UHGV virus genome: UHGV-0072939
Strand: one strand, 5' to 3'
Length of the DNA stretch: 55,033 nucleotides
Source: a virus
Part shown: one piece after another, positions 3,611 through 33,366 of the stretch
Numbering within the stretch: position 1 is the stretch's first letter
Layout of the letters: every line of letters begins with the position of its first letter
The notes under the pieces: model-generated
Seen by the model: the letters and a program-made list of their open reading frames with translations, nothing else
What the model was told of the DNA's origin: nothing
The model's database searches: none
Program-made: the position numbers and the translations under genes

Positions 3611-4204
3611 TTATGCGTAACTGAAAATAAGACGCAGATGCGAGGGCGCAATTTTAGTGATCGCGCACTCGAGTTGTTTATTTCCCCAGGAGGCCAGAGA
3701 ATCACCGCAGTAAGATGCACCTGACAGTGCGTATTTGATGGTGGTTTGCGGGGCGTTAATCTGCCAGGTAAAAGGCCACTCATCGCCGTTCAGGGCATCG
3801 CCGCACGCCGACATACCGCACATCGCGGGGCGAAACTGTGTGATGGTGATGGTATACCCCAGCTCCGCCGCCACGCGGATGTAGTAATCGCGGTTCAGGC
3901 CGCCGGTACTGATGAGCTTTGCCACCACCAGGCGCTGGCGATCGCTGACTCCATCGATTTCACCGATAGTGCAGTCATCCGGCAGACCAAGCGTCGCTTC
4001 CCATTCCGGAAGCATACTGGTCGCAGTGGGCGGAAATGCCCCGGCAATGAGATTTACCGCATCGTCATCCGAACGCTGGAATGCACTTGCCAGGGCGCGC
4101 AGAACCGCCGCCTGTACTGTTTTTGATGCCCGTGGCCATGCCCTGCCGGTGGGCAGCAGCGCACCCAGCGCGCCGGCGTAATCATCTTTCGAAAAGAGGC
4201 TCAT
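3611..4204 (-). CDS. tail protein, YmfQ/DUF2313-like (Mu gp48 position)
   Basis: 197 aa; gene order and recalled similarity to e14 YmfQ / Mu R family. Confidence 0.65.
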   Translation of the reverse strand: MSLFSKDDYAGALGALLPTGRAWPRASKTVQAAVLRALASAFQRSDDDAVNLIAGAFPPTATSMLPEWEATLGLPDDCTIGEIDGVSDRQRLVVAKLISTGGLNRDYYIRVAAELGYTITITQFRPAMCGMSACGDALNGDEWPFTWQINAPQTTIKYALSGASYCGDSLASWGNKQLECAITKIAPSHLRLIFSYA

Positions 4205-23821: not shown

Positions 23822-24352
23822 TTAATGGTTTTGCAGGGCAGCGTATGCCCTTTGACATGCATCTCCCCTTATTCGGGATTCGTCAGCAATTTCTGCCAGT
23901 CTCTGCGCGCGTTCGTCAGCGCGAGCGTACAACTCGGCGAGCACTCCGGCACCAGGGGTTGTTGCACGGCTTCCGGTGGCAGTGCCGGTATTGCCGGAGG
24001 CGCGACTTTGCTGCAGCTGGCGGGCGTAATCGGCGACCTGCTGGCGCAGGCTGTCAGCGTCAGTACGAGCGTGAGCAGCATCAGCCTGAGCGCGGGTGAG
24101 TTGCTGAGATGCCTGCGCGGCGGCTTTGGCAATACCATTCTGTCTCTCCTGTTCGGTTTGTCTGTTTTTAGCCTGCAGGTCAGCTACCGCCTGTACGTCA
24201 GCAGCATCGCGGGCAGTCCATTTTTCCTGCCAGGCGTTATCAGTGGCTGTAACACCCGCGACATATCGCCAGTGACCAAAGGCCCATAACGACAAAGCCA
24301 CCAGCACGATTAGCGCCAGTGGCTTCCAGTACTTCCCCAGGAGAAGCGTCAC
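23822..24352 (-). CDS. i-spanin Rz-like lysis protein
   Basis: 176 aa; N-terminal TM helix then long Ala/Gln/Arg-rich coiled-coil; ATGA overlap with lysozyme gene. Confidence 0.7.
   Translation of the reverse strand: MTLLLGKYWKPLALIVLVALSLWAFGHWRYVAGVTATDNAWQEKWTARDAADVQAVADLQAKNRQTEQERQNGIAKAAAQASQQLTRAQADAAHARTDADSLRQQVADYARQLQQSRASGNTGTATGSRATTPGAGVLAELYARADERAQRLAEIADESRIRGDACQRAYAALQNH
23869..24081 (-). CDS. o-spanin Rz1-like lipoprotein embedded in Rz in the +1 frame
   Basis: 70 aa from ATG 24081; lipobox LTAC, Pro-rich mature region. Confidence 0.6.
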   Translation of the reverse strand: MLLTLVLTLTACASRSPITPASCSKVAPPAIPALPPEAVQQPLVPECSPSCTLALTNARRDWQKLLTNPE

Positions 24353-24789
24353 GACAAGAACAGAGCGCGCTCTGCCTCACGCCGTTTGACCAGGCCATTA
24401 AGCACTTTACCGCCGGCTTTATTCCATTTCGGAAACTCATCAGCTGCGCCGCGGTAATCGCCAGCGTTCAGCTTCTTCAGCAGCGTGGAGCTTTCAAGTG
24501 CCCCGACGCCGATGTTATATGCGAAGCCCACCAGCGCATCGAACTGGTTCTGGTTCAGCACCACCCTGACCAGACGATTCACGCCGTTTACGTACTGCAC
24601 TACACCGCTCACCAGCAGGTTATCGGCAGTAGCCTGTGTAATAATCATTCCACTACCGACCGGAACACCACCTACAGGCTGCGTCCATCCATAGCCGATG
24701 GTCCATACGCCTACACTGTCCTGATAGGCCGACAGGCGACAGTCCTCGAATTGCTTGATAAGGGAGAGACCCTTTCCACTGATTTGCAT
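24349..24789 (-). CDS. endolysin, glycoside hydrolase family 24 lysozyme
   Basis: 146 aa from ATG 24789 (TAATG overlap with upstream gene); MQISGKGLSLIKQFEDCRLSAYQD and GYGWT motifs typical of T4/P22-type lysozymes. Confidence 0.85.
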   Translation of the reverse strand: MQISGKGLSLIKQFEDCRLSAYQDSVGVWTIGYGWTQPVGGVPVGSGMIITQATADNLLVSGVVQYVNGVNRLVRVVLNQNQFDALVGFAYNIGVGALESSTLLKKLNAGDYRGAADEFPKWNKAGGKVLNGLVKRREAERALFLS

Positions 24790-25064
24790 TACGTTGCCCT
24801 CACAAATTTTGCCAGATTGCCGCCAGCAAGCCACACGGCAATGCATACCGTCACATTGATCATGAATTCGCCGGGGTCAACCTGCATATAATCGCCGTGG
24901 ATGATCCGGAACGCGGTATACCCGGCGGAAAGAATAATCAGGTAGGCAAACACCGAGACGCCCAAGCGGTGAGCTTTTCCGGCTTTATTGAAAAACAGCA
25001 GCCGGAACATAATCAGCAGGCATATCATCGCGTTTGCATGAAGCATCAGGTATTGCCATGTCAT
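24789..25064 (-). CDS. small membrane protein, holin/antiholin-like
   Basis: 91 aa with 2-3 hydrophobic helices, between holin candidate and endolysin. Confidence 0.5.
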   Translation of the reverse strand: MTWQYLMLHANAMICLLIMFRLLFFNKAGKAHRLGVSVFAYLIILSAGYTAFRIIHGDYMQVDPGEFMINVTVCIAVWLAGGNLAKFVRAT

Positions 25065-25459
25065 TCATCACCTCCATCCAGCCCAGGGAGTTTCCCTTTT
25101 TTGGATCTGGCCAGAATGCGAAGCAGAATAGCGACAGAAATGGAGGCAGCAACCAATGCACCGATATTCGGAGATACCTCAATAGTCACCGGCGGTGTTA
25201 ATACGCTCAATGCGGCATTGATCACGGCAGCCAGAATCTTCGCCATCGGTCCTGAGAAGGAAACCCCACCCAGGAACGAGATAACAGCGAATATTGCCTG
25301 TTTCCATATCTGGTGGGGATCAGAGGTCAACACATACAGTGCTGCACCACTCAGAGAGAAAACCATGACTCCTGGTGTCGCCTCCGGAAACCAGGTTGCT
25401 AGCGTCGCACCTACAAACCCGGCAGTTACGCCACCAGCTACAGTTACAGGATCGGACAT
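25061..25459 (-). CDS. putative holin (membrane protein)
   Basis: 132 aa, hydrophobic helices, charged C-terminus (RSKKGKLPGLDGGDE); first gene of lysis cassette. Confidence 0.55.
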   Translation of the reverse strand: MSDPVTVAGGVTAGFVGATLATWFPEATPGVMVFSLSGAALYVLTSDPHQIWKQAIFAVISFLGGVSFSGPMAKILAAVINAALSVLTPPVTIEVSPNIGALVAASISVAILLRILARSKKGKLPGLDGGDE

Positions 25460-25607
25460 TAAGCCCCCTCGTTATTGCTGTGAGTCCTCTCAGAATTGAG
25501 GGGATAAGGAATCAGGCTCGCGGGCTCTTATGTAAAAATGAAGGTAAGGGTGATTCCCGGAGCCTGAAGTGGTTGGTCACCACAGCTACAGGGAGCGTGA
25601 TGATCCG

Positions 25608-26660
25608 TTATGTCTGGTTGAGCGCCTGCAGCTCGCTGACCGTCTGAATAAATCGCTCGGTCTCAAGCTCTACGCCGATCGCCCGGCGCCCAAGCTCCAT
25701 TGCCGCTTTCACGGTGGAACCCGAGCCCATAAAAAAATCGGCTACCGTGTCGCCCGGCCTGCTGCTGGCGCTGATAATCTGCCTGAGCATGTCAGCAGGT
25801 TTTTCGCAGGGATGCTTCCCCGGGTAAAACTGCACAGGCTTGTGGGTCCATACGTCGGTATACGGAACCGAGACGGATACAGAGAAACAGCGCCGGAGAG
25901 TTTTGTATTCCTCCAACAGCGCTGAATATTTCCGGTTGAGCGACTGGTATGTGCCCACCAGCTGGTGGTGTGGATGTTCAAGTTCCTGCCGCTGGTGCTT
26001 TTCTGCCGCGATGCGGGTGAACAGCTGCTGCAGCGTCAGGTAATCATTCTCGTTCGGTAACTGCCACTGGCTGGCGCTAAACCAGTGCGAGACCATATTC
26101 TTTTTGCCCGTGGCGTCGGCGATAGCTTTGCTCGTTACGCCAAGTGCCTCGCGGGCGTTGCGGAAATAGTCAATCAGCGGCGTCATGACATGCTGCTTGA
26201 GCTCGTTGCTTTTGCGGTCGTAACCGTCATCCTTCTCTTTGTATGGTCCCGTGTGATGTTCAGCAAAAAGAATACGCTCGGTTGCCGGGAAGTAAGCGCG
26301 AAGGCTTTCTTTATTACAGCCATTCCAGCGGCCAGAGGGCTTTGCCCAGATAATATGATTCAGGACGTTGAACCGCGCCCGCATCATGATTTCAATATCA
26401 GATGCCAGTCGATGCCCGGAGAACAGATACAGGCAGCCGGCTGGTTTAAGCACTCGCCAGAATTCCGCCAGACATCCGTCAAGCCAGAGCAGGTAGTCCT
26501 CATCCCCTTTCCACTGGTTGTCCCATCCGTCCGGTTTCACTTTGAAGTAAGGCGGATCGGTAACAATCAGGTCAATGGAGTTGTCCGGGAGAGAAGCGAT
26601 GAAATGCAGACAGTCAGCGTTGATTAACTCAACACTGTTTATTTTTACAGTATTTTTCAT
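25608..26660 (-). CDS. orphan DNA methyltransferase, amino-methyltransferase (N6-adenine or N4-cytosine) with DPPY motif
   Basis: 350 aa; DPPY near N-terminus and FFMGSGST (AdoMet-binding) near C-terminus, i.e. beta-class motif order; no adjacent restriction endonuclease gene. Confidence 0.8.
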   Translation of the reverse strand: MKNTVKINSVELINADCLHFIASLPDNSIDLIVTDPPYFKVKPDGWDNQWKGDEDYLLWLDGCLAEFWRVLKPAGCLYLFSGHRLASDIEIMMRARFNVLNHIIWAKPSGRWNGCNKESLRAYFPATERILFAEHHTGPYKEKDDGYDRKSNELKQHVMTPLIDYFRNAREALGVTSKAIADATGKKNMVSHWFSASQWQLPNENDYLTLQQLFTRIAAEKHQRQELEHPHHQLVGTYQSLNRKYSALLEEYKTLRRCFSVSVSVPYTDVWTHKPVQFYPGKHPCEKPADMLRQIISASSRPGDTVADFFMGSGSTVKAAMELGRRAIGVELETERFIQTVSELQALNQT

Positions 26661-27054
26661 AGATCAGTAAGCGTAACTTTGATAGGCTCACTTCGCTTTT
26701 GCGCTAAAGCAATGGGCCCTGGTTAGCTTGTGACCTGAAAGCATGAGCTGATGGCTGGCCGGGTGCGCTAACACCCACCAGCCGCCCATTTTCACAGCAT
26801 CTGAAATCCCACCAATGCAGGATCTGTAATTGTTGCCGCTATAGGTCGTGCGGCGCACCATCTCATTTTTAGGCTACTTACGCGTTAAACCGGGCGCCAA
26901 CCGTAACTCAGTGATGCATTACGCCACCTTTCCCTCACTACGTCGCCGTGGGAACCCGACCGGATTAACACCGTCGTCACGCAGCCTGAACCCAATCAGG
27001 CATCCAATATGAGGTCTGTCCGTTTAGCGGATCATAGTTGCATCCTCCAGAAAG

Positions 27055-27077
27055 CAAAAAACCCCGCCGGGGCGAGG
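27055..27077 (-). terminator. hairpin flanked by A6 on the plus strand (T6 on the minus strand); candidate intrinsic terminator for leftward transcripts (tR'-like)
   Basis: sequence AAAAAACCCCGCCGGGGCGAGGTTT read directly; short GC stem with one mismatch. Confidence 0.35.
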
Positions 27078-27211
27078 TTTAGAAATCGTTTAAGTCCGTG
27101 ACGTAGTAACCACTCTTAACACGTTACTACACTTTTTGCGGACCGCATTAATGTTTTTTATCATTAAAACAGGTATTTTATGGAAAAAAATCAAACCATA
27201 GTGAGCAAATA

Positions 27212-28081
27212 GTGACCAATACTACTTCTTTTCAGATCTTCTATGATGCAGAAGATACTGAATTGGCACAGCATAAAATTGATGCAAAAACACTTAGCAT
27301 TTCCATAGGTTCTATGGCTGATTTGATTTCAGCCGCTGATAAACGGCTTAACGACGGTCAACAAACTGTGAAGTTGATGGTTACAAACCCGGCGGAGGCT
27401 GGCTCTCTCGGCGTATCCTATACGATGATGGAGCTTGTTCCGCATGCAATCAATGTTGCGAAAGTGATCGGATTGACAGGGTTAGCTGGCGCCGCAATTG
27501 GTGCACCTGCATTATCATTAATTCGACAGTTGGGAAGTAAGAAAGTCATTTCCATCACGAAACGAGCTGGTACAGACCAATCCGTTCTTGAGCTCGAAGG
27601 TGAAGAAATTGTTTGTCATGATTCTGTAGCCAAGCTAGTGACTGATCCAGAGATTAGGAATGCTTTAGTGAACGTAGTGCGAGCACCTTTAGACGGGAAA
27701 GAAGGCGCAGTGTTCAAAGTTCTGAATGAAGACGGTGTTGAAGTCGTGCGCTTGGAAGGTGAAGAAACTGAGGAAATAAAACCGCTTCCTAGGGGCACTT
27801 TGCTGGAAAAAGAAGAATCAGTGGAAGAAGTAAACGTAAGATTCGTCCAAATAAACTTCGAAGGAACAAAAGGTTGGAGGATTGAGTACCTCGGAGAGGA
27901 ACACGCTGTTTCGTTTGAGGATCAACTTTTTATACATCAAGTCCAAAATGGGATTGTTAGTTTCACCAAAGAAGATTTGTTTGTAGTTGACCTCAAAACA
28001 ACAAAAACTTTCACTGCACGTAATGCTTCAACCAAGTATGCTATAACCAGAGTTAAGCGAAAACGCCCTGCTGAGGCTTGA
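27212..28081 (+). CDS. hypothetical protein (289 aa), first gene of AT-rich three-gene operon
   Basis: long ORF; GTG at 27212 is the first in-frame start after a stop; a 10-codon upstream ORF (ATG 27180) ends TAG overlapping this GTG; no family recognised. Confidence 0.5.
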   Translation: MTNTTSFQIFYDAEDTELAQHKIDAKTLSISIGSMADLISAADKRLNDGQQTVKLMVTNPAEAGSLGVSYTMMELVPHAINVAKVIGLTGLAGAAIGAPALSLIRQLGSKKVISITKRAGTDQSVLELEGEEIVCHDSVAKLVTDPEIRNALVNVVRAPLDGKEGAVFKVLNEDGVEVVRLEGEETEEIKPLPRGTLLEKEESVEEVNVRFVQINFEGTKGWRIEYLGEEHAVSFEDQLFIHQVQNGIVSFTKEDLFVVDLKTTKTFTARNASTKYAITRVKRKRPAEA

Positions 28082-28137
28082 TTAACGTGGCATTAAACTT
28101 GCAAATAGCGCAACTGATCTTCTGGATAGGAGTGGTT

Positions 28138-28347
28138 ATGATCATTCCTACCTTTAGTCGTTTCTGCTATTCGGCATCTGCTTTGCTATGGCGTCGATTG
28201 TTTCCTACCAGGACCTTTGAGTTCCGGTATCACGATGAAGATACTGGTACAACTAAAACACTCATTGTTAAGGTACCAAGAAAAAACGGGAAAATGCTTA
28301 CCAGTCTTATTGATGAGGCTATTTCGGAGAATTCAAAACAAAAATGA
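28138..28347 (+). CDS. hypothetical small protein (69 aa)
   Basis: ATG 28138 with GGAG SD 7 nt upstream; stop TGA overlaps next ATG (ATGA). Confidence 0.45.
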   Translation: MIIPTFSRFCYSASALLWRRLFPTRTFEFRYHDEDTGTTKTLIVKVPRKNGKMLTSLIDEAISENSKQK

Positions 28348-28766
28348 GTTCTCAAAGTAAAGGGTTAAGTACTGGAAAAGCGACACTTTCCACTGGAGGT
28401 TGGGGAGCAATACTCAGCGTTTTAGTTGGTGCTGTTCTTACCGACCCCAACAGTGTGTGGAGGACGGTTGCTTATGCCCTAGTGCCAGGTGTTGCTGCTG
28501 TCCTTACCTACGTGATGAATTGGTTCATTTCTCGGCATGGGTTTGAATCACCAGAAGATGCAGCTAAACGAGCGAAGTGTAAACGCGATTTAGCAGAGAT
28601 CGAAAAACAGCTACGTTCAGAGCATTTAACCTCTGAAATTGAATCTAGGCTGATGCAGGCAAAGGCCAAGACAATTGAAATACTCGTTTCTATTGGCAGC
28701 GACTCAATCCTTGAGGCCTCATCACGTTCGAGCCAACTACCAGATACTGCCGGGCCCAAAGGCTGA
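28344..28766 (+). CDS. hypothetical membrane protein (140 aa, two predicted TM helices, charged C-terminal half)
   Basis: hydrophobic segments GGWGAILSVLVGAVL and VAYALVPGVAAVLTYVMNWFI; translationally coupled to upstream gene. Confidence 0.55.
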   Translation: MSSQSKGLSTGKATLSTGGWGAILSVLVGAVLTDPNSVWRTVAYALVPGVAAVLTYVMNWFISRHGFESPEDAAKRAKCKRDLAEIEKQLRSEHLTSEIESRLMQAKAKTIEILVSIGSDSILEASSRSSQLPDTAGPKG

Positions 28767-28788
28767 CCGGCAGTCTTGAACTTAACAA

Positions 28789-29154
28789 TCAATTATCCAT
28801 TTCAAGTCGAATATCAAGCATAGCCAAACATCCGTCTATAAATCCTTCTGCCATCTGCATCTCAATTCGGATCAATTTTTCGTCTTTTTTGCGCATCTTT
28901 GCAATCTTGCGTTTTGAAATGCCATAAAGGTAATGAGCTACCAGAAGAGAATGCTCATATGGCTTTCTTTTCTTTAATTGAGCCAAACACCCTTCAATGA
29001 TGAGAGCATCATCATCGGTACAGGACAATCGCGATTTACTACTCTGTGGCAAGAGCCCCTTAAACCCTGCCGCAATTGGTGAATAATCAACGCCAGAGTT
29101 GTCACTGGCCGCCCATCCTCCCCAGCATTCCAGGACTTTTTGCATATCACGCAT
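28789..29154 (-). CDS. late-gene antitermination protein Q-like
   Basis: 121 aa; position upstream of lysis genes; recalled Q-family resemblance. Confidence 0.6.
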   Translation of the reverse strand: MRDMQKVLECWGGWAASDNSGVDYSPIAAGFKGLLPQSSKSRLSCTDDDALIIEGCLAQLKKRKPYEHSLLVAHYLYGISKRKIAKMRKKDEKLIRIEMQMAEGFIDGCLAMLDIRLEMDN

Positions 29155-29169
29155 TTATGTTCTCCATAC

Positions 29170-30231
29170 TTACACTTTAACAATTACGCCGATCGCCAGC
29201 GCCCGATCCAGAACGCGAAACAGCAGCTCCAGCTGCGTGCCGTGCTTCTTCTCGAACGCCGCTACATCGGCATGCAACTCGTCGTGGCACTCTCTGCACA
29301 GAGGGATCACGAAGAGGTCGTGGGCTTTTGTAGCTGTACCGCCCATACCATGCCCGATGATATGGTGCGGGTCGTCTGCCGGACGGCGGCAACCTTCGCA
29401 GGGCTGAACCTTTACCCAGCGGGTGTATTTCTCGTTCTCCCAGCGGCGGCGCTTCGGTCGCAGCATGAATGATTCCGGCGATTCCGGATCGATCCTCAGC
29501 GCCAGCACCGCGGGCTGCTCCTGCACCTCCTGCGGGTTTGTGCTGCTCCTGCACTGTTTTACTGCTCCTGCGGTTGCAGCCTTCTCCTGCAGGATGCTGG
29601 TGGCCGGCGGCATTGGGACAATGTCGCTTTCCCGGTAAAACGGCAGAAACGGCTCATCGGGCATCTGCAGCGCGCGGCGGGCCATCGTTTCAGGGATTGC
29701 ACCGGCGATACCTGCACAGACCGCCCACCAGCACAGCTCACCCAGCGACAGCTCCCGCTCTTTGTTGAAACCCAGCGCCGCGAGCACAGTATCAATCACC
29801 CAGGCGACAACGTTACGGCGCGCCAGCTCCGCCAGCTGCTCTGTCGTCTGCTGGCGCAACTCGTTATCGCAGTGCCAGCACAGCACCATCGCACCGGGCG
29901 GGTGGCGCATAGCAACCAGCTCCTTATGGTGGTAGCCGGAGTGCTGATACTGGCACTGATGCACACGGTGCAGCAGCCAGAACTCGAGACCGGGCAATCC
30001 GCCGGCGGCACGCATAACCCGCTCGTCGGTGAAGAAGGAAACAAGAAGCGGATCATCGGCCAGAGGCTGCCGGGCATCGGGAACACGGCCTGACGGAAGC
30101 GCGGCCATGCTCCTGGGCTCGGATTCCACCAGCACACGGCCGTCACTGAACAGGCGCATCAGGTCTTTACCCGGCTTCAGCAGCACCAGGCCGAGGCGCG
30201 GTACCGTTTCGGCTGTCAACAATGCTCTCAC
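29170..30231 (-). CDS. DUF968-like phage protein with Cys/His-rich C-terminal region
   Basis: 353 aa; C-terminal CEGCRRPADDPHHIIGHGMGGTATKAHDLFVIPLCRECHDELH resembles DUF968 of lambdoid nin regions. Confidence 0.55.
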   Translation of the reverse strand: MRALLTAETVPRLGLVLLKPGKDLMRLFSDGRVLVESEPRSMAALPSGRVPDARQPLADDPLLVSFFTDERVMRAAGGLPGLEFWLLHRVHQCQYQHSGYHHKELVAMRHPPGAMVLCWHCDNELRQQTTEQLAELARRNVVAWVIDTVLAALGFNKERELSLGELCWWAVCAGIAGAIPETMARRALQMPDEPFLPFYRESDIVPMPPATSILQEKAATAGAVKQCRSSTNPQEVQEQPAVLALRIDPESPESFMLRPKRRRWENEKYTRWVKVQPCEGCRRPADDPHHIIGHGMGGTATKAHDLFVIPLCRECHDELHADVAAFEKKHGTQLELLFRVLDRALAIGVIVKV

Positions 30232-30943: not shown

Positions 30944-31330
30944 TCAGGCGGCTGCACCCGCCGGTTCGTATTGGCTGATCGTTATCTCAACCCTGCCTTT
31001 CGTCACCACTGGCCCCCACTCCACCAGCATGCGTTTTACCTGGCTGTCATCCTCCCACACGCCAGCATGTGTCAGCGCGTCAAACAGCGCTTTGTTGTAG
31101 TTGTCCAGATCCCGGCGGCGCGCGTCCGGCGGATACAGGGTGATTTCGACTGCAGCAGGCGCTGTTGATGGCTTCGGCAGCCTGCGCAGCTGCTCAATGA
31201 TCGCCGCGCAGGCCGCGCTCTGGTATTTGCGGCCGTCAGCACTGATAAGATGGCGCCCGGCCAGCGGCCCCTTGTTAGGGGCGCGCCAGTAGGTGTTAAC
31301 GCTCGGAGGAAACGGCAGCACCAGCTTCAT
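30944..31330 (-). CDS. rusA: Holliday junction resolvase RusA-like
   Basis: about 128 aa from ATG 31330 (MKLVLPFPPSVN...), characteristic RusA N-terminus and DxDN-containing core. Confidence 0.8.
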   Translation of the reverse strand: MKLVLPFPPSVNTYWRAPNKGPLAGRHLISADGRKYQSAACAAIIEQLRRLPKPSTAPAAVEITLYPPDARRRDLDNYNKALFDALTHAGVWEDDSQVKRMLVEWGPVVTKGRVEITISQYEPAGAAA

Positions 31331-33366
31331 GCCACCTCCCGCTGCGGATCCGCGCACATCTCAGGTAAGTTTGCCTCCACCAGCGCGCGGGCGAATGGTG
31401 GCGGGACGGCGTTGCCGCAGCGCGCGACCTGCTTATCCTTCGCGTAGCGGTTGCCCCGGTAGTCCTGATCGATAACGTAGCCATCCGGGAAGCCCTGGGC
31501 TTTGTACAACTCATGGGGCTGCAACATACGCATGCCGATATCAACAATCTGGTACTTAACACCCTCGATCGTCACCAGCCATTCGTCTTCGCTTTCCCCG
31601 CAGTAGGTTTCCAGGAATGTCCGAACCTCCCCTACATGCTGGCCGCCGGCGGTGATGGTTGGCATCGGTTCGTCCAGGCGCTGCCCGTCGCGGCATGTTC
31701 CCCTTAATTTGATTAGATGCGACGTCACCATCGCGCTATCAGCTTTTGTAGTCAGGGTTTGAATAGGCTCACTTACATCCCTAGGACGGCTCTGCCCGGC
31801 ACGACCGCCTACACCTACGACCTGTGCACTTACAAGTGCGTGGTGATCGACCGTCGTCACGGAGTGTGCTGGCTCATCCAGACCCACGCCCGGGCCCGTA
31901 TAATTCCCGCCGTAGTGCTTCGCCAGGAATGCGCTCACCGTTGCAAACTTATTGCCACCAGCGGTAACTGTGCCCAACGGGGTATCGATTTTCAGCACGT
32001 GCGGCTGCTGCCCCGGACGCTCACCGTAGCCCATCTGTATCAGGGTTGGTGTAACCAACTGGGATTTACCGCCACCACCCGCTGTGATGGTCGCACTCGG
32101 CTCATCCGCCCGGTGGCCGATACTGGCGCCGAACTGGCGGGCAATCACTGGCGTAACCAGGCAGGCGCGGGATTGCTTCAGGATAGTGTGGGCAGGCTTA
32201 TTCAGCGCGCGCGGCTTCGCCTGGTATTCGCTGCCGCCGTTGCCAGCCAGGAATGGTGTCAGCGCCGCCTCAACAACGCCTAGGGCATGACCATTCCCGC
32301 CCGGACGCGCCGATGTGCCAGCGGTCACCGTAGGAACCGGTTCGGTAACGGGTTGCCCGGTTGCGCCGGTGCGGAATTTAGTCAGGTGCGGTACCGCTAT
32401 CGCGTAGCCGTGGGTTTTGGTGATGGTCTGCAGCGGCGCGCCCAGCTCCTGACCACGAAAACAGTCATAGCTACCTTTCGTCGTGGTGTGGTTACATTTC
32501 ACGATGAACGGCGAGGCGCTCTCGATGACAAACCGCTGGATACCGCGCGCAATACGCTTCAGGGTATTTTCTGCCAGGGGCTTTTTGCGATCGAAGATAG
32601 AAAGCGCCGGGATATTCCAGTCGATACACTCCGCCGCGGTGCGCCACGGCGCCAGCCTGCCGCTCTGCACTTCCAGTGATTTCGGATCCCCGTGGGTCGG
32701 TTCAGGCCAGTGAATGGCTTTACCATCGCAGCGCATGACCATAAAGAAACGGCGACGGATTGTCGGCGCGCCATAGTCGCACGCGCGCAGCTCGCGATAA
32801 TCGACGTCATAGCCGAGCCCGGCAACCAGCTGTTGCGCCTGCCCGCTGCCAGGTTCAATAGAGAGAAATTCGCAGACCTCAGCCAGCGCCGGATGATCTG
32901 CCGGGATCCCCGTTGACAGCATAGCGACAAACGCCGTGAACGTTTCGCCAGCACGCGCAGGATCCGGGCGCATTTCGTCAGCCAGCAGCGGCCCCCACGT
33001 TTTAAACTCTTCGACGTTCTCCAGCATCATTACGCGTGGTCGCTTCGCCAGCGCCCAGCGGATAACTACCCACGCCAGCCCGCGGATTTCCTTCTTCACC
33101 GGCTTCGCGCCTTTCGCCTTTGAAAAATGGCGGCAGTCGGGGCTGAACCATGCCAGGCCAACAGGATGCGCGCCAGTGGCAGCAACCGGATCCACATCAA
33201 ACACCGATTCGCAGTAATGCAGCGTGTCGGGGTGGTTGGTCTTGTGCATGGCGATGGCGTTTTCGTCGTGGTTGATGGCAATATCCACGCTGCGCCCTAT
33301 GGCGAGTTCGATCCCGGTAGAGGCACCGCCGCCGCCGGCGAAGTTATCAACGATAATTTCACGCAC
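31327..33366 (-). CDS. DNA cytosine-5 methyltransferase with long C-terminal extension
   Basis: 679 aa; motif I FAGGGG, motif IV-like SPDCRHFS, motif VI ENV (MLENVEEF). Confidence 0.8.
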   Translation of the reverse strand: MREIIVDNFAGGGGASTGIELAIGRSVDIAINHDENAIAMHKTNHPDTLHYCESVFDVDPVAATGAHPVGLAWFSPDCRHFSKAKGAKPVKKEIRGLAWVVIRWALAKRPRVMMLENVEEFKTWGPLLADEMRPDPARAGETFTAFVAMLSTGIPADHPALAEVCEFLSIEPGSGQAQQLVAGLGYDVDYRELRACDYGAPTIRRRFFMVMRCDGKAIHWPEPTHGDPKSLEVQSGRLAPWRTAAECIDWNIPALSIFDRKKPLAENTLKRIARGIQRFVIESASPFIVKCNHTTTKGSYDCFRGQELGAPLQTITKTHGYAIAVPHLTKFRTGATGQPVTEPVPTVTAGTSARPGGNGHALGVVEAALTPFLAGNGGSEYQAKPRALNKPAHTILKQSRACLVTPVIARQFGASIGHRADEPSATITAGGGGKSQLVTPTLIQMGYGERPGQQPHVLKIDTPLGTVTAGGNKFATVSAFLAKHYGGNYTGPGVGLDEPAHSVTTVDHHALVSAQVVGVGGRAGQSRPRDVSEPIQTLTTKADSAMVTSHLIKLRGTCRDGQRLDEPMPTITAGGQHVGEVRTFLETYCGESEDEWLVTIEGVKYQIVDIGMRMLQPHELYKAQGFPDGYVIDQDYRGNRYAKDKQVARCGNAVPPPFARALVEANLPEMCADPQREVA

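Follow-up and report, generated by a model that had tools for sequence, protein, structure and literature searches.

A candidate late-control module separated from its Q gene, and a structured leader RNA before an M.EcoGII-type methyltransferase, in virus genome UHGV-0072939

Virus genome UHGV-0072939, whose whole 55,033-nucleotide (nt) stretch we call the window, encodes on its minus strand a Q antiterminator and, further downstream, an orphan DNA methyltransferase (MTase) that stands directly before the lysis genes. Reading along the minus strand, a DUF968/HNH-like gene (29170-30231) is followed by Q, three plus-strand open reading frames (ORFs), an interval (26661-27211), the MTase gene, the holin genes and the endolysin gene (Table 1). 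A previous sequence-only reading of this DNA had proposed, by analogy with phage lambda, that the interval contains the late promoter and the qut site, with a hairpin acting as the terminator tR', and that Q has been displaced from this target by an inserted operon. We followed up this proposal by comparing the interval, Q and the MTase gene with their relatives in phages, prophages and viral contigs.

Table 1. Features of the late region of the window, with the evidence on which each assignment is based.
Feature	Position	Strand	Evidence or remark
Q antiterminator gene, 121 amino acids (aa)	28789..29154	-	PF06530, E = 2.2e-53, full length; phrog_79
Hairpin CTGCCGG/CCGGCAG, GC-rich	28747..28773	.	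overlaps cassette gene 3 (140 aa) at its 3' end; about 15 nt past the Q stop
Cassette gene 3, 140 aa	28344..28766	+	ORF list; hydrophobic stretches by eye
Cassette gene 2, 89 aa	28078..28347	+	ORF list; N-terminal stretch hydrophobic by eye
Cassette gene 1, 289 aa, LAPAL-motif protein / PADLOC candidate PDC-S42	27212..28081	+	PDLC05015, E = 2e-31; phrog_3243
A-tract at left edge of module, UP-element-like	27154..27159	-	A in 92-96% of 83 unique variants (relative positions -38 to -34)
TTA	27151-27149	-	module anatomy; an A/T tract lies between palindrome and TAACGT
Palindrome GCGGTCCGC, candidate Q-binding element	27138..27146	-	one copy in the window; centre at fixed distance from core
TAACGT (TAnnnT hexamer), candidate -10	27121..27126	-	unique-variant alignment
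Core GTTAAGAGTGG with TAAGAG/AAGAGT	27110..27120	-	invariant in BLAST-derived set; common to modules with other palindromes
Hairpin GTTAAG...CTTAA (27094-27090 arm) around inner GTGG/C(A/C)AC helix	27090..27120	-	RNA fold
tR'-like intrinsic terminator	27056..27080	-	stem 27080-27059 (9 pairs, 5 G-C, loop 4), T6 27061-27056; terminator scan
Non-coding spacer	26797..27055	-	relatives: 64-76-aa ORF and second terminator, neither intact in the window
MTase leader RNA, 139 nt	26796-26658	-	three-way junction P1-P3 and hairpins P4, P5; ends at MTase AUG
Orphan beta-class adenine MTase, M.EcoGII family, 350 aa	25608..26660	-	PF01555, E = 2.7e-42
Lysis genes: holins (25061-25459 and 24789-25064), then endolysin	24349..25459	-	PF16931, PF05449, PF00959

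A conserved block between Q and the late genes

The module in question is a conserved block of about 100 nt, located at 27159-27056 on the minus strand. In BLAST searches against phage records, its 27159-27088 part (up to 27058 in mEp390) recurs alongside homologous Q genes, with 70-74% DNA identity. The block begins on the final base of Q in Stx2_14040, PhiR49_2 and 1720a-02, whereas it is found behind two reverse-strand genes in cdtI, behind one reverse-strand gene flanked by an annotated bidirectional terminator in mEp390, and behind two reverse-strand genes plus IS1 in SfIV. Late genes follow on the same strand in all of the compared phages, and closely so in cdtI, mEp390 and SfIV. In the window, 1643 nt holding the three plus-strand ORFs lie between the end of Q and the palindrome, and the proposed displacement of Q thus stands; likewise, the homologous block of about 73-105 nt found directly after Q in relatives supports the placement of the late promoter and qut within 27080-27211, with the hairpin as a putative tR'.

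An exact-pattern scan of viral contigs returned at least 120 loci, and for 107 of the matches listed the fetched DNA also included Q. Among these, the module lies 31-41 nt from the end of Q in 36, and 0.8-1.8 kb away from it in the other 71. The full layout of the window, namely, Q, three reverse genes, module and MTase, was found in at least 21 complete Escherichia coli genomes at around 78% DNA identity. Judging from these comparisons, the displaced layout is common among relatives and not peculiar to this phage.

The family of Q decides which late promoter should be used as a reference. PF06530 is the family of phage 21 Q (Q21), and it is distinct from the families of the lambda and phage 82 Q proteins (PMC9388147); the window Q matches the Q21 structures 6P18 and 6JNX weakly but specifically (E = 2.4e-4). 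Therefore, phage 21 pR', rather than that of lambda, is the right analogue. In the curated phage 21 record (OL657228), the Q stop (1932) is followed by a -35 element TTGACA (1939-1944), a Q-binding element made of two 8-bp direct repeats (1947-1962), a -10 element (1962-1967), the transcription start (1974), the pause element TAAGCT (1975-1981) and a terminator (1976-2023).

Conservation of the module ends upstream of its A-tract. The hexamer preceding the core reads T(80%)-A(100%)-n-Y-n-T(100%) in 83 unique variants, a conservation that was not imposed by the search, since the pattern left the hexamer positions free. TAnnnT is also kept in the DLP12 prophage of E. coli K-12 (TATGCT) and in modules with other palindromes and, as far as sequence can tell, T-A-n-Y-n-T is the signature read by region 2 of sigma-70. 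If TAACGT is taken as the -10 element, transcription would start near A27114, and the A-tract would fall at -45 to -41, the place of a proximal UP subsite. In addition, the arms of the hairpin around the core are compensated, with GATAAG facing CTTAT(C/T) in three of the compared loci (L253, L270 and L274), and the spacing between arms varies by 20-22 nt. Compensated arms despite variable spacing imply pairing in RNA, which would put the start at or before about 27119. Transcription may thus start within 27120-27113, and on sequence grounds both readings keep the promoter inside 27080-27211. A literature search for published 5'-end data on the region upstream of essD in DLP12 found none.

The core itself also recalls pause elements, its TAAGAG/AAGAGT being similar to TAAGCT (phage 21) and AACGAT (lambda), and TAAGAG comes 28 nt after the palindrome begins, a distance equal to that between Q-binding and pause elements in phage 21; the spacing of TAnnnT does not fit. 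Two other assignments were considered and rejected. TGTAGT (27131-27126), which phage 21-like spacing would point to as the -10 element, misses the key A here and in 45% of the variants, and was rejected as the sole answer. TAnnnT as a pause element, with the promoter further upstream, leaves no room for such a promoter, given that conservation ends at the A-tract.

The palindrome provides a link between the module and Q. At the same position, and before the same downstream core, other modules carry the different palindromes GCGTACGC, TTTACGTACGTAAA (DLP12), TACAATCGTA, TGTTATAACA and TTCGTTACGAA, and the type of palindrome follows the Q clade. Within a type, Q proteins are 75-100% (GCGTACGC), 85-99% (DLP12 type) or 86-100% (TGTTATAACA) identical, with a median of 78% for the GCGGTCCGC type of the window, where a few low pairs are possibly spurious; between unrelated types, identity drops to 39-60%. 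Moreover, the similar palindromes TACAATCGTA and TACGTACGTA are paired with similar Q proteins (77-88%), and the link holds with or without an insert between Q and the module. A Q-binding element would be expected to show such a pattern, which makes the palindrome a candidate for this role. A palindromic site implies a symmetric dimer, in contrast to Q21 on its direct repeats.

With regard to the terminator, the sequence-only reading had noticed a minus-strand hairpin followed by T6, which the terminator scan recovered and RNA folding reproduced at 27080-27059. Since eight terminator-like matches occur in the region where 4.2 +/- 2.2 are expected, a lone hairpin is weak evidence, and its weight comes from the comparison instead. 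A GC-rich, terminator-like hairpin with a T-run is present at the equivalent place in 81 of 85 unique homologous modules, its stem ending 42-59 nt past the counterpart of A27114 among unique variants. More than 40 distinct stems stay complementary, for example AAACCCGC/GCGGGTTT, AAACCTCGC/GCGGGGTTT and GCCCTGCCA/TGGTGGGGC. Many module variants have a second, tandem terminator, while the window has only one. Beyond it, tblastn of the spacer (27055-26797) detected no homology to the ORF that relatives carry there, and its sole match among the compared loci (74% over 239 nt) is a stretch of a Buttiauxella gaviniae prophage (L270, 2816-3053) that is apparently non-coding and has the same position after tR'.

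Taken together, the homology, position and anatomy of this block make it highly probable that it is the pR'/qut/tR' unit of a lambdoid prophage with a phage 21-family Q. Several observations weigh against this assignment. A strict scan for the sigma-70 consensus over 25000-29500 found no promoter, and the module has no recognisable -35 consensus. A clear sigma-dependent pause element is also missing, as TAAGAG ends in G and the spacing of TAnnnT is short for phage 21 or lambda. The evidence for the start site is in conflict with itself, because a start at A27114 leaves the covarying arm GTTAAG (27120-27115) outside the RNA. Furthermore, the candidate Q site is palindromic, whereas Q21 binds direct repeats, and, unlike most relatives, the window has no second terminator ahead of the leader.

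The orphan methyltransferase and its leader RNA

The MTase belongs to an already known kind, the M.EcoGII family, to judge from its sequence. It has the beta-class motif order that had been read from the sequence, with DPPY at residues 35-38 and FMGSG (FxGxG) at 310-314, and its nearest solved structures are other beta-class MTases. M.EcoGII itself is a prophage-borne, non-specific adenine MTase, toxic on expression and silent in the lysogen, and phage 1720a-02 encodes a very similar enzyme (PMC5778455). The window MTase is identical to M.EcoGII at 280 of 348 positions, or 80% over the full length; the M.EcoGII sequence used as reference was obtained by machine reading of the PMC11551740 supplement, which makes 80% a lower bound of the true identity. 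With the MTases of 1720a-02 and mEp460 the window MTase shares 80-82% identity, its best matches (Kluyvera, Pseudocitrobacter, Citrobacter) reach 85%, and homologues occur across Enterobacterales. By this kinship the window MTase is probably non-specific for adenine.

A check of the neighbours found no partner endonuclease beside the MTase gene, which is flanked by the non-coding leader upstream and by the holin and endolysin genes downstream; its orphan status, as previously noticed, is thus confirmed. Its best PADLOC match is a type II MTase model whose partner gene is absent, and the locus, having no adjacent endonuclease, is not a type II restriction-modification system. That the MTase would be the first late gene, as had also been suggested, fits both the synteny, with module, MTase and holin in this order in many phages, and the silence of M.EcoGII in the lysogen (PMC5778455). 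The window has a second orphan MTase in the early region (31327-33366, minus strand; 679 aa), which begins with a C5-cytosine methylase domain (PF00145, E = 1.3e-20) in its N-terminal part, while its long C-terminal part is unassigned.

The interval was correctly described as free of ORFs of 60 aa or more, the longest being 57 aa on the minus and 54 aa on the plus strand. What that description missed is that the interval also holds a structured leader RNA, as recognised from conservation and covariation. The leader is more conserved than the MTase gene that follows it (about 90% versus 78% identity). In all 130 viral-contig instances the leader motif is followed by the MTase start, which lies 128-131 nt from the start of the motif in 129 of them. 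A covariance model matches the window with 156 bits, and recovers the leader at this position in 50 loci, with no hit elsewhere in 569 kb.

In the leader, a three-way junction is closed by P1 (UGGGC/GCCCA); P2, a hairpin of 12 bp, is fully compensated in Acerihabitans and Gilliamella; and the closing pair of P3 is C-G in 26 sequences, A-U in 10, U-A in 7 and U-G in 4. These are followed by P4 (GCUUU/AAAGC) and P5 (GUGAGC/GCUUAC), the latter ending 8 nt before the AUG. Paired cells amount to 90-93%, against 30-49% with slid partners, and 17-18 pairs are changed on both sides, against 5-10 in the controls; none of 500 shuffles reached the observed values. Pairing of the P3 loop (GGUCA) with UGAUC before the AUG, as a pseudoknot, was also considered and would involve columns that are almost invariant. 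No Shine-Dalgarno sequence is visible before the MTase AUG. Immediately before the leader, most relatives carry a terminator-like hairpin followed by a U-tract, whose counterpart in the window is degenerate.

A search of Rfam 15 with the leader and the pR' RNA, even with lax filters on 211 nt, gave nothing credible at E <= 1 on the correct strand, the only hits being chance-level matches to istR (E = 0.99) and, on the wrong strand, Streptomyces-metK (E = 0.34). The anti-small RNAs AgvB/AsxR were discarded as the identity of the leader, as they are 51-60 nt long and located 3' of moron genes. Similarly, the 57-aa ORF at 26688-26861 was discarded as a gene: it has no family match in Pfam, PADLOC, PHROGs or NCBIfam, and its conserved part is explained by the RNA structure. 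The most economical guess for the function of the leader would be translational control of a toxic gene. More tentatively, and with less than even confidence, we propose that the leader is an undescribed cis-regulatory RNA family of M.EcoGII-type methylases, whose three-way junction would bind a ligand or protein, and that the palindromes reflect a second mode of DNA recognition in the Q21 family, with a dimer on an inverted repeat. Under this proposal, S-adenosylmethionine or S-adenosylhomocysteine, the MTase itself or a late phage factor may be bound, gating the translation of a toxic gene that lacks a Shine-Dalgarno sequence.

The stretch just before the first holin gene (25460-25607, minus strand; CCCTCAAT..GAGAGGACTCAC..AATAA) is also present in mEp390 (L003, about 3920-4000), where it comes directly after the terminators of the module. 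This shared stretch suggests that MTase and leader may be an in-line insertion within an older module-to-holin arrangement.

The cassette and other neighbouring features

The junction between Q and the late promoter contains an insert in 71 of the 107 viral contigs among the matches listed, with at least 16 unrelated cassette types, whose main ORFs are reverse-oriented in nearly all cases. The best reading of this pattern is that of a recurrent insertion hotspot, for defence or accessory genes. In the window, the first cassette gene also matches NCBIfam NF053583 (LAPAL_fam; E = 6e-60, 203 bits versus a cut-off of 60), while the second and third have no family match in Pfam, PADLOC, PHROGs or NCBIfam. 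The start and stop codons of the 89-aa and 140-aa ORFs overlap those of their neighbours. In an E. coli relative (L007) the 140-aa ORF is annotated as a hypothetical coding sequence, and the 89-aa ORF was left unannotated. Other cassettes at this junction match PDC-S20/a PifA-like nucleoside triphosphatase, an HNH nuclease resembling PDC-M68A and CBASS effectors, and an NYN-like protein. The three-gene cassette is accessory and, by such resemblances, probably anti-phage.

At the Q end of the cassette, inspection of the hairpin at 28747-28773 revealed no T-run on either strand; mEp390 has its annotated bidirectional terminator at the equivalent position. ARAGORN found no transfer RNA (tRNA) genes over 24000-30000, a range that includes the sequence downstream of the tR'-like terminator.

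Proposed mechanism, alternatives and known counterparts

The mechanism that we propose is as follows. Host RNA polymerase with sigma-70 would start constitutively at about 27120-27113 and, without Q, would stop at the terminator (27080-27056), yielding a short RNA of approximately 55-65 nt. Q, expressed from the early operon at a distance of 1.6 kb, would diffuse to the module, bind the palindrome and load onto the promoter-proximal polymerase, making it resistant to the terminator. In lambda, Q acts in trans, and such a separation would thus be no obstacle. Read-through would then extend across the spacer, the structured leader, the MTase, holin and endolysin genes and the remaining late operon. 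The MTase would methylate the replicating phage DNA prior to packaging, allowing the progeny to escape many restriction systems. Being toxic, it must stay off in the lysogen, which the terminator would ensure, with the leader, devoid of a Shine-Dalgarno sequence, probably adding translational control.

We weighed this mechanism against four alternatives. Short pR'-tR' RNAs can be functional, Hfq-binding small RNAs (PMC7547250), and the module could be mainly a constitutive small-RNA gene acting in trans like StxS, with read-through by Q being secondary or absent. The conserved 5' hairpin with its compensatory change would agree with this, as would the weak resemblance to istR, which is confined to the terminator region. 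However, the module is always found between the Q gene and same-strand late genes, and a stand-alone small-RNA gene has no need of an upstream palindrome that tracks the Q clade. We consider this alternative improbable as an account of the module, and a small-RNA role is in any case compatible with a Q-dependent switch. A different objection is that the hairpin at 27080-27056 could be the terminator of another unit, and the true late promoter could lie directly upstream of the holin gene (25460-25607). The 148-nt gap between MTase and holin genes does contain the leader that is also found before the mEp390 holin. Yet, in mEp390 this holin leader directly follows the same module and its terminators, which makes the module the upstream control element, and our scan showed no promoter-like site in the gap, so that a promoter there seems extremely unlikely.

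The remaining two alternatives refer to the 139 nt before the MTase gene. Some orphan MTases act as regulators (mentioned in PMC5778455), and the window MTase, rather than being late, could have a promoter of its own in the lysogen and a role in epigenetic control or lysogenic conversion, the conserved 139 nt being promoter/operator DNA. Indeed, TGTGAAAAT at 26796-26788 resembles an extended -10 element. This match is not conserved, however, as relatives carry TGTGGAAAT or TGTGGTAAAT; P1, which would lie upstream of such a start, keeps its pairing through a two-sided change; and the two-sided changes in P2, P3 and P5 are those that RNA pairing would give, rather than a DNA site. Added to this, the leader is directly preceded by a terminator in most relatives, and M.EcoGII, a toxic enzyme on expression, stays silent in the lysogen (PMC5778455). 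An MTase promoter at this place is therefore quite unlikely in our estimation. The same stretch could instead encode a 33-aa peptide (MGGWWVLAHPAS...), given that an ATG-initiated ORF exists in the window (26789-26688) and can be read in many close relatives. But only 16 aa of the ORF are left in Acerihabitans and 3 aa in Gilliamella, and a frameshift affects it in the E. albertii/Stx type, whereas the helices are still compensated, and we give the peptide very little credence.

The Q-dependent switch can be compared with several known systems. One is phage 21 (Yin et al., 2019; Shi et al., 2019), which shares with the window a PF06530 Q and, within about 90-100 nt, the order of a Q site and a -10-type hexamer, both of them candidates in the window, then an early core containing TAAG and a terminator, followed by same-strand late genes. 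It differs in that its Q is a remotely similar protein of 162 aa (E = 2.4e-4), in its two direct repeats where the candidate Q site of the window is a 9-bp palindrome, in its TTGACA -35 element, which the window lacks, and in the distance of the window module from Q. Phage 21 and the Shiga toxin (Stx) phages also have tRNA genes after tR', unlike the window. E. coli K-12 DLP12 offers a related arrangement, namely, quuD (a PF06530-type Q, 51% identical), the reverse-strand nmpC gene (disrupted by IS5), a related module and essD. The DLP12 module, TATGCT plus GTTAAGAGTGGTTACTTCG plus a terminator, stands just before the holin gene; here the palindrome is different, a porin gene takes the place of the PDC-S42 cassette, and there is neither MTase nor leader. 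Phages cdtI, mEp390 and SfIV share the Q type and the module, with one or two reverse-strand genes between them, but have other cargo, and in mEp390 and SfIV the module directly precedes the holin gene, without an MTase. Lambda pR'/6S RNA/tR' and StxS (PMC7547250) would be alike in having a constitutive late promoter, a nearby terminator, a short RNA in the lysogen and read-through by Q; their Q family is different, and the RNA predicted for the window is short in comparison.

For the MTase, the reference is M.EcoGII from a prophage of E. coli O104:H4 (Murray et al., 2018, PMC5778455), which is likewise of beta-class order, prophage-borne and orphan. Its near relative in 1720a-02 is found behind the same Q type, module and leader as in the window. 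The 20% divergence of the window MTase from M.EcoGII includes the central target-recognition region.

All in all, the late region is of an ordinary lambdoid kind, with a few details still unexplored. Three features would, as deduced from sequence, go beyond the textbook picture: candidate Q sites that are palindromic and follow the Q clade, the hotspot for insertions at the junction of Q and pR', and the RNA leader of the MTase. Our analysis assigns a late-gene switch to a widespread and uncharacterised subgroup of phage 21-type Q proteins, which includes that of the K-12 prophage DLP12 and those of several Stx2 phages, where the module would drive toxin expression. The correspondence between palindrome types and Q clades supplies ready pairs for tests of Q specificity, and new reverse-oriented accessory and candidate defence genes may usefully be sought where Q meets the late promoter. 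Finally, for the M.EcoGII family, a widely used tool enzyme, natural expression control would include a conserved structured RNA that apparently has not been studied.

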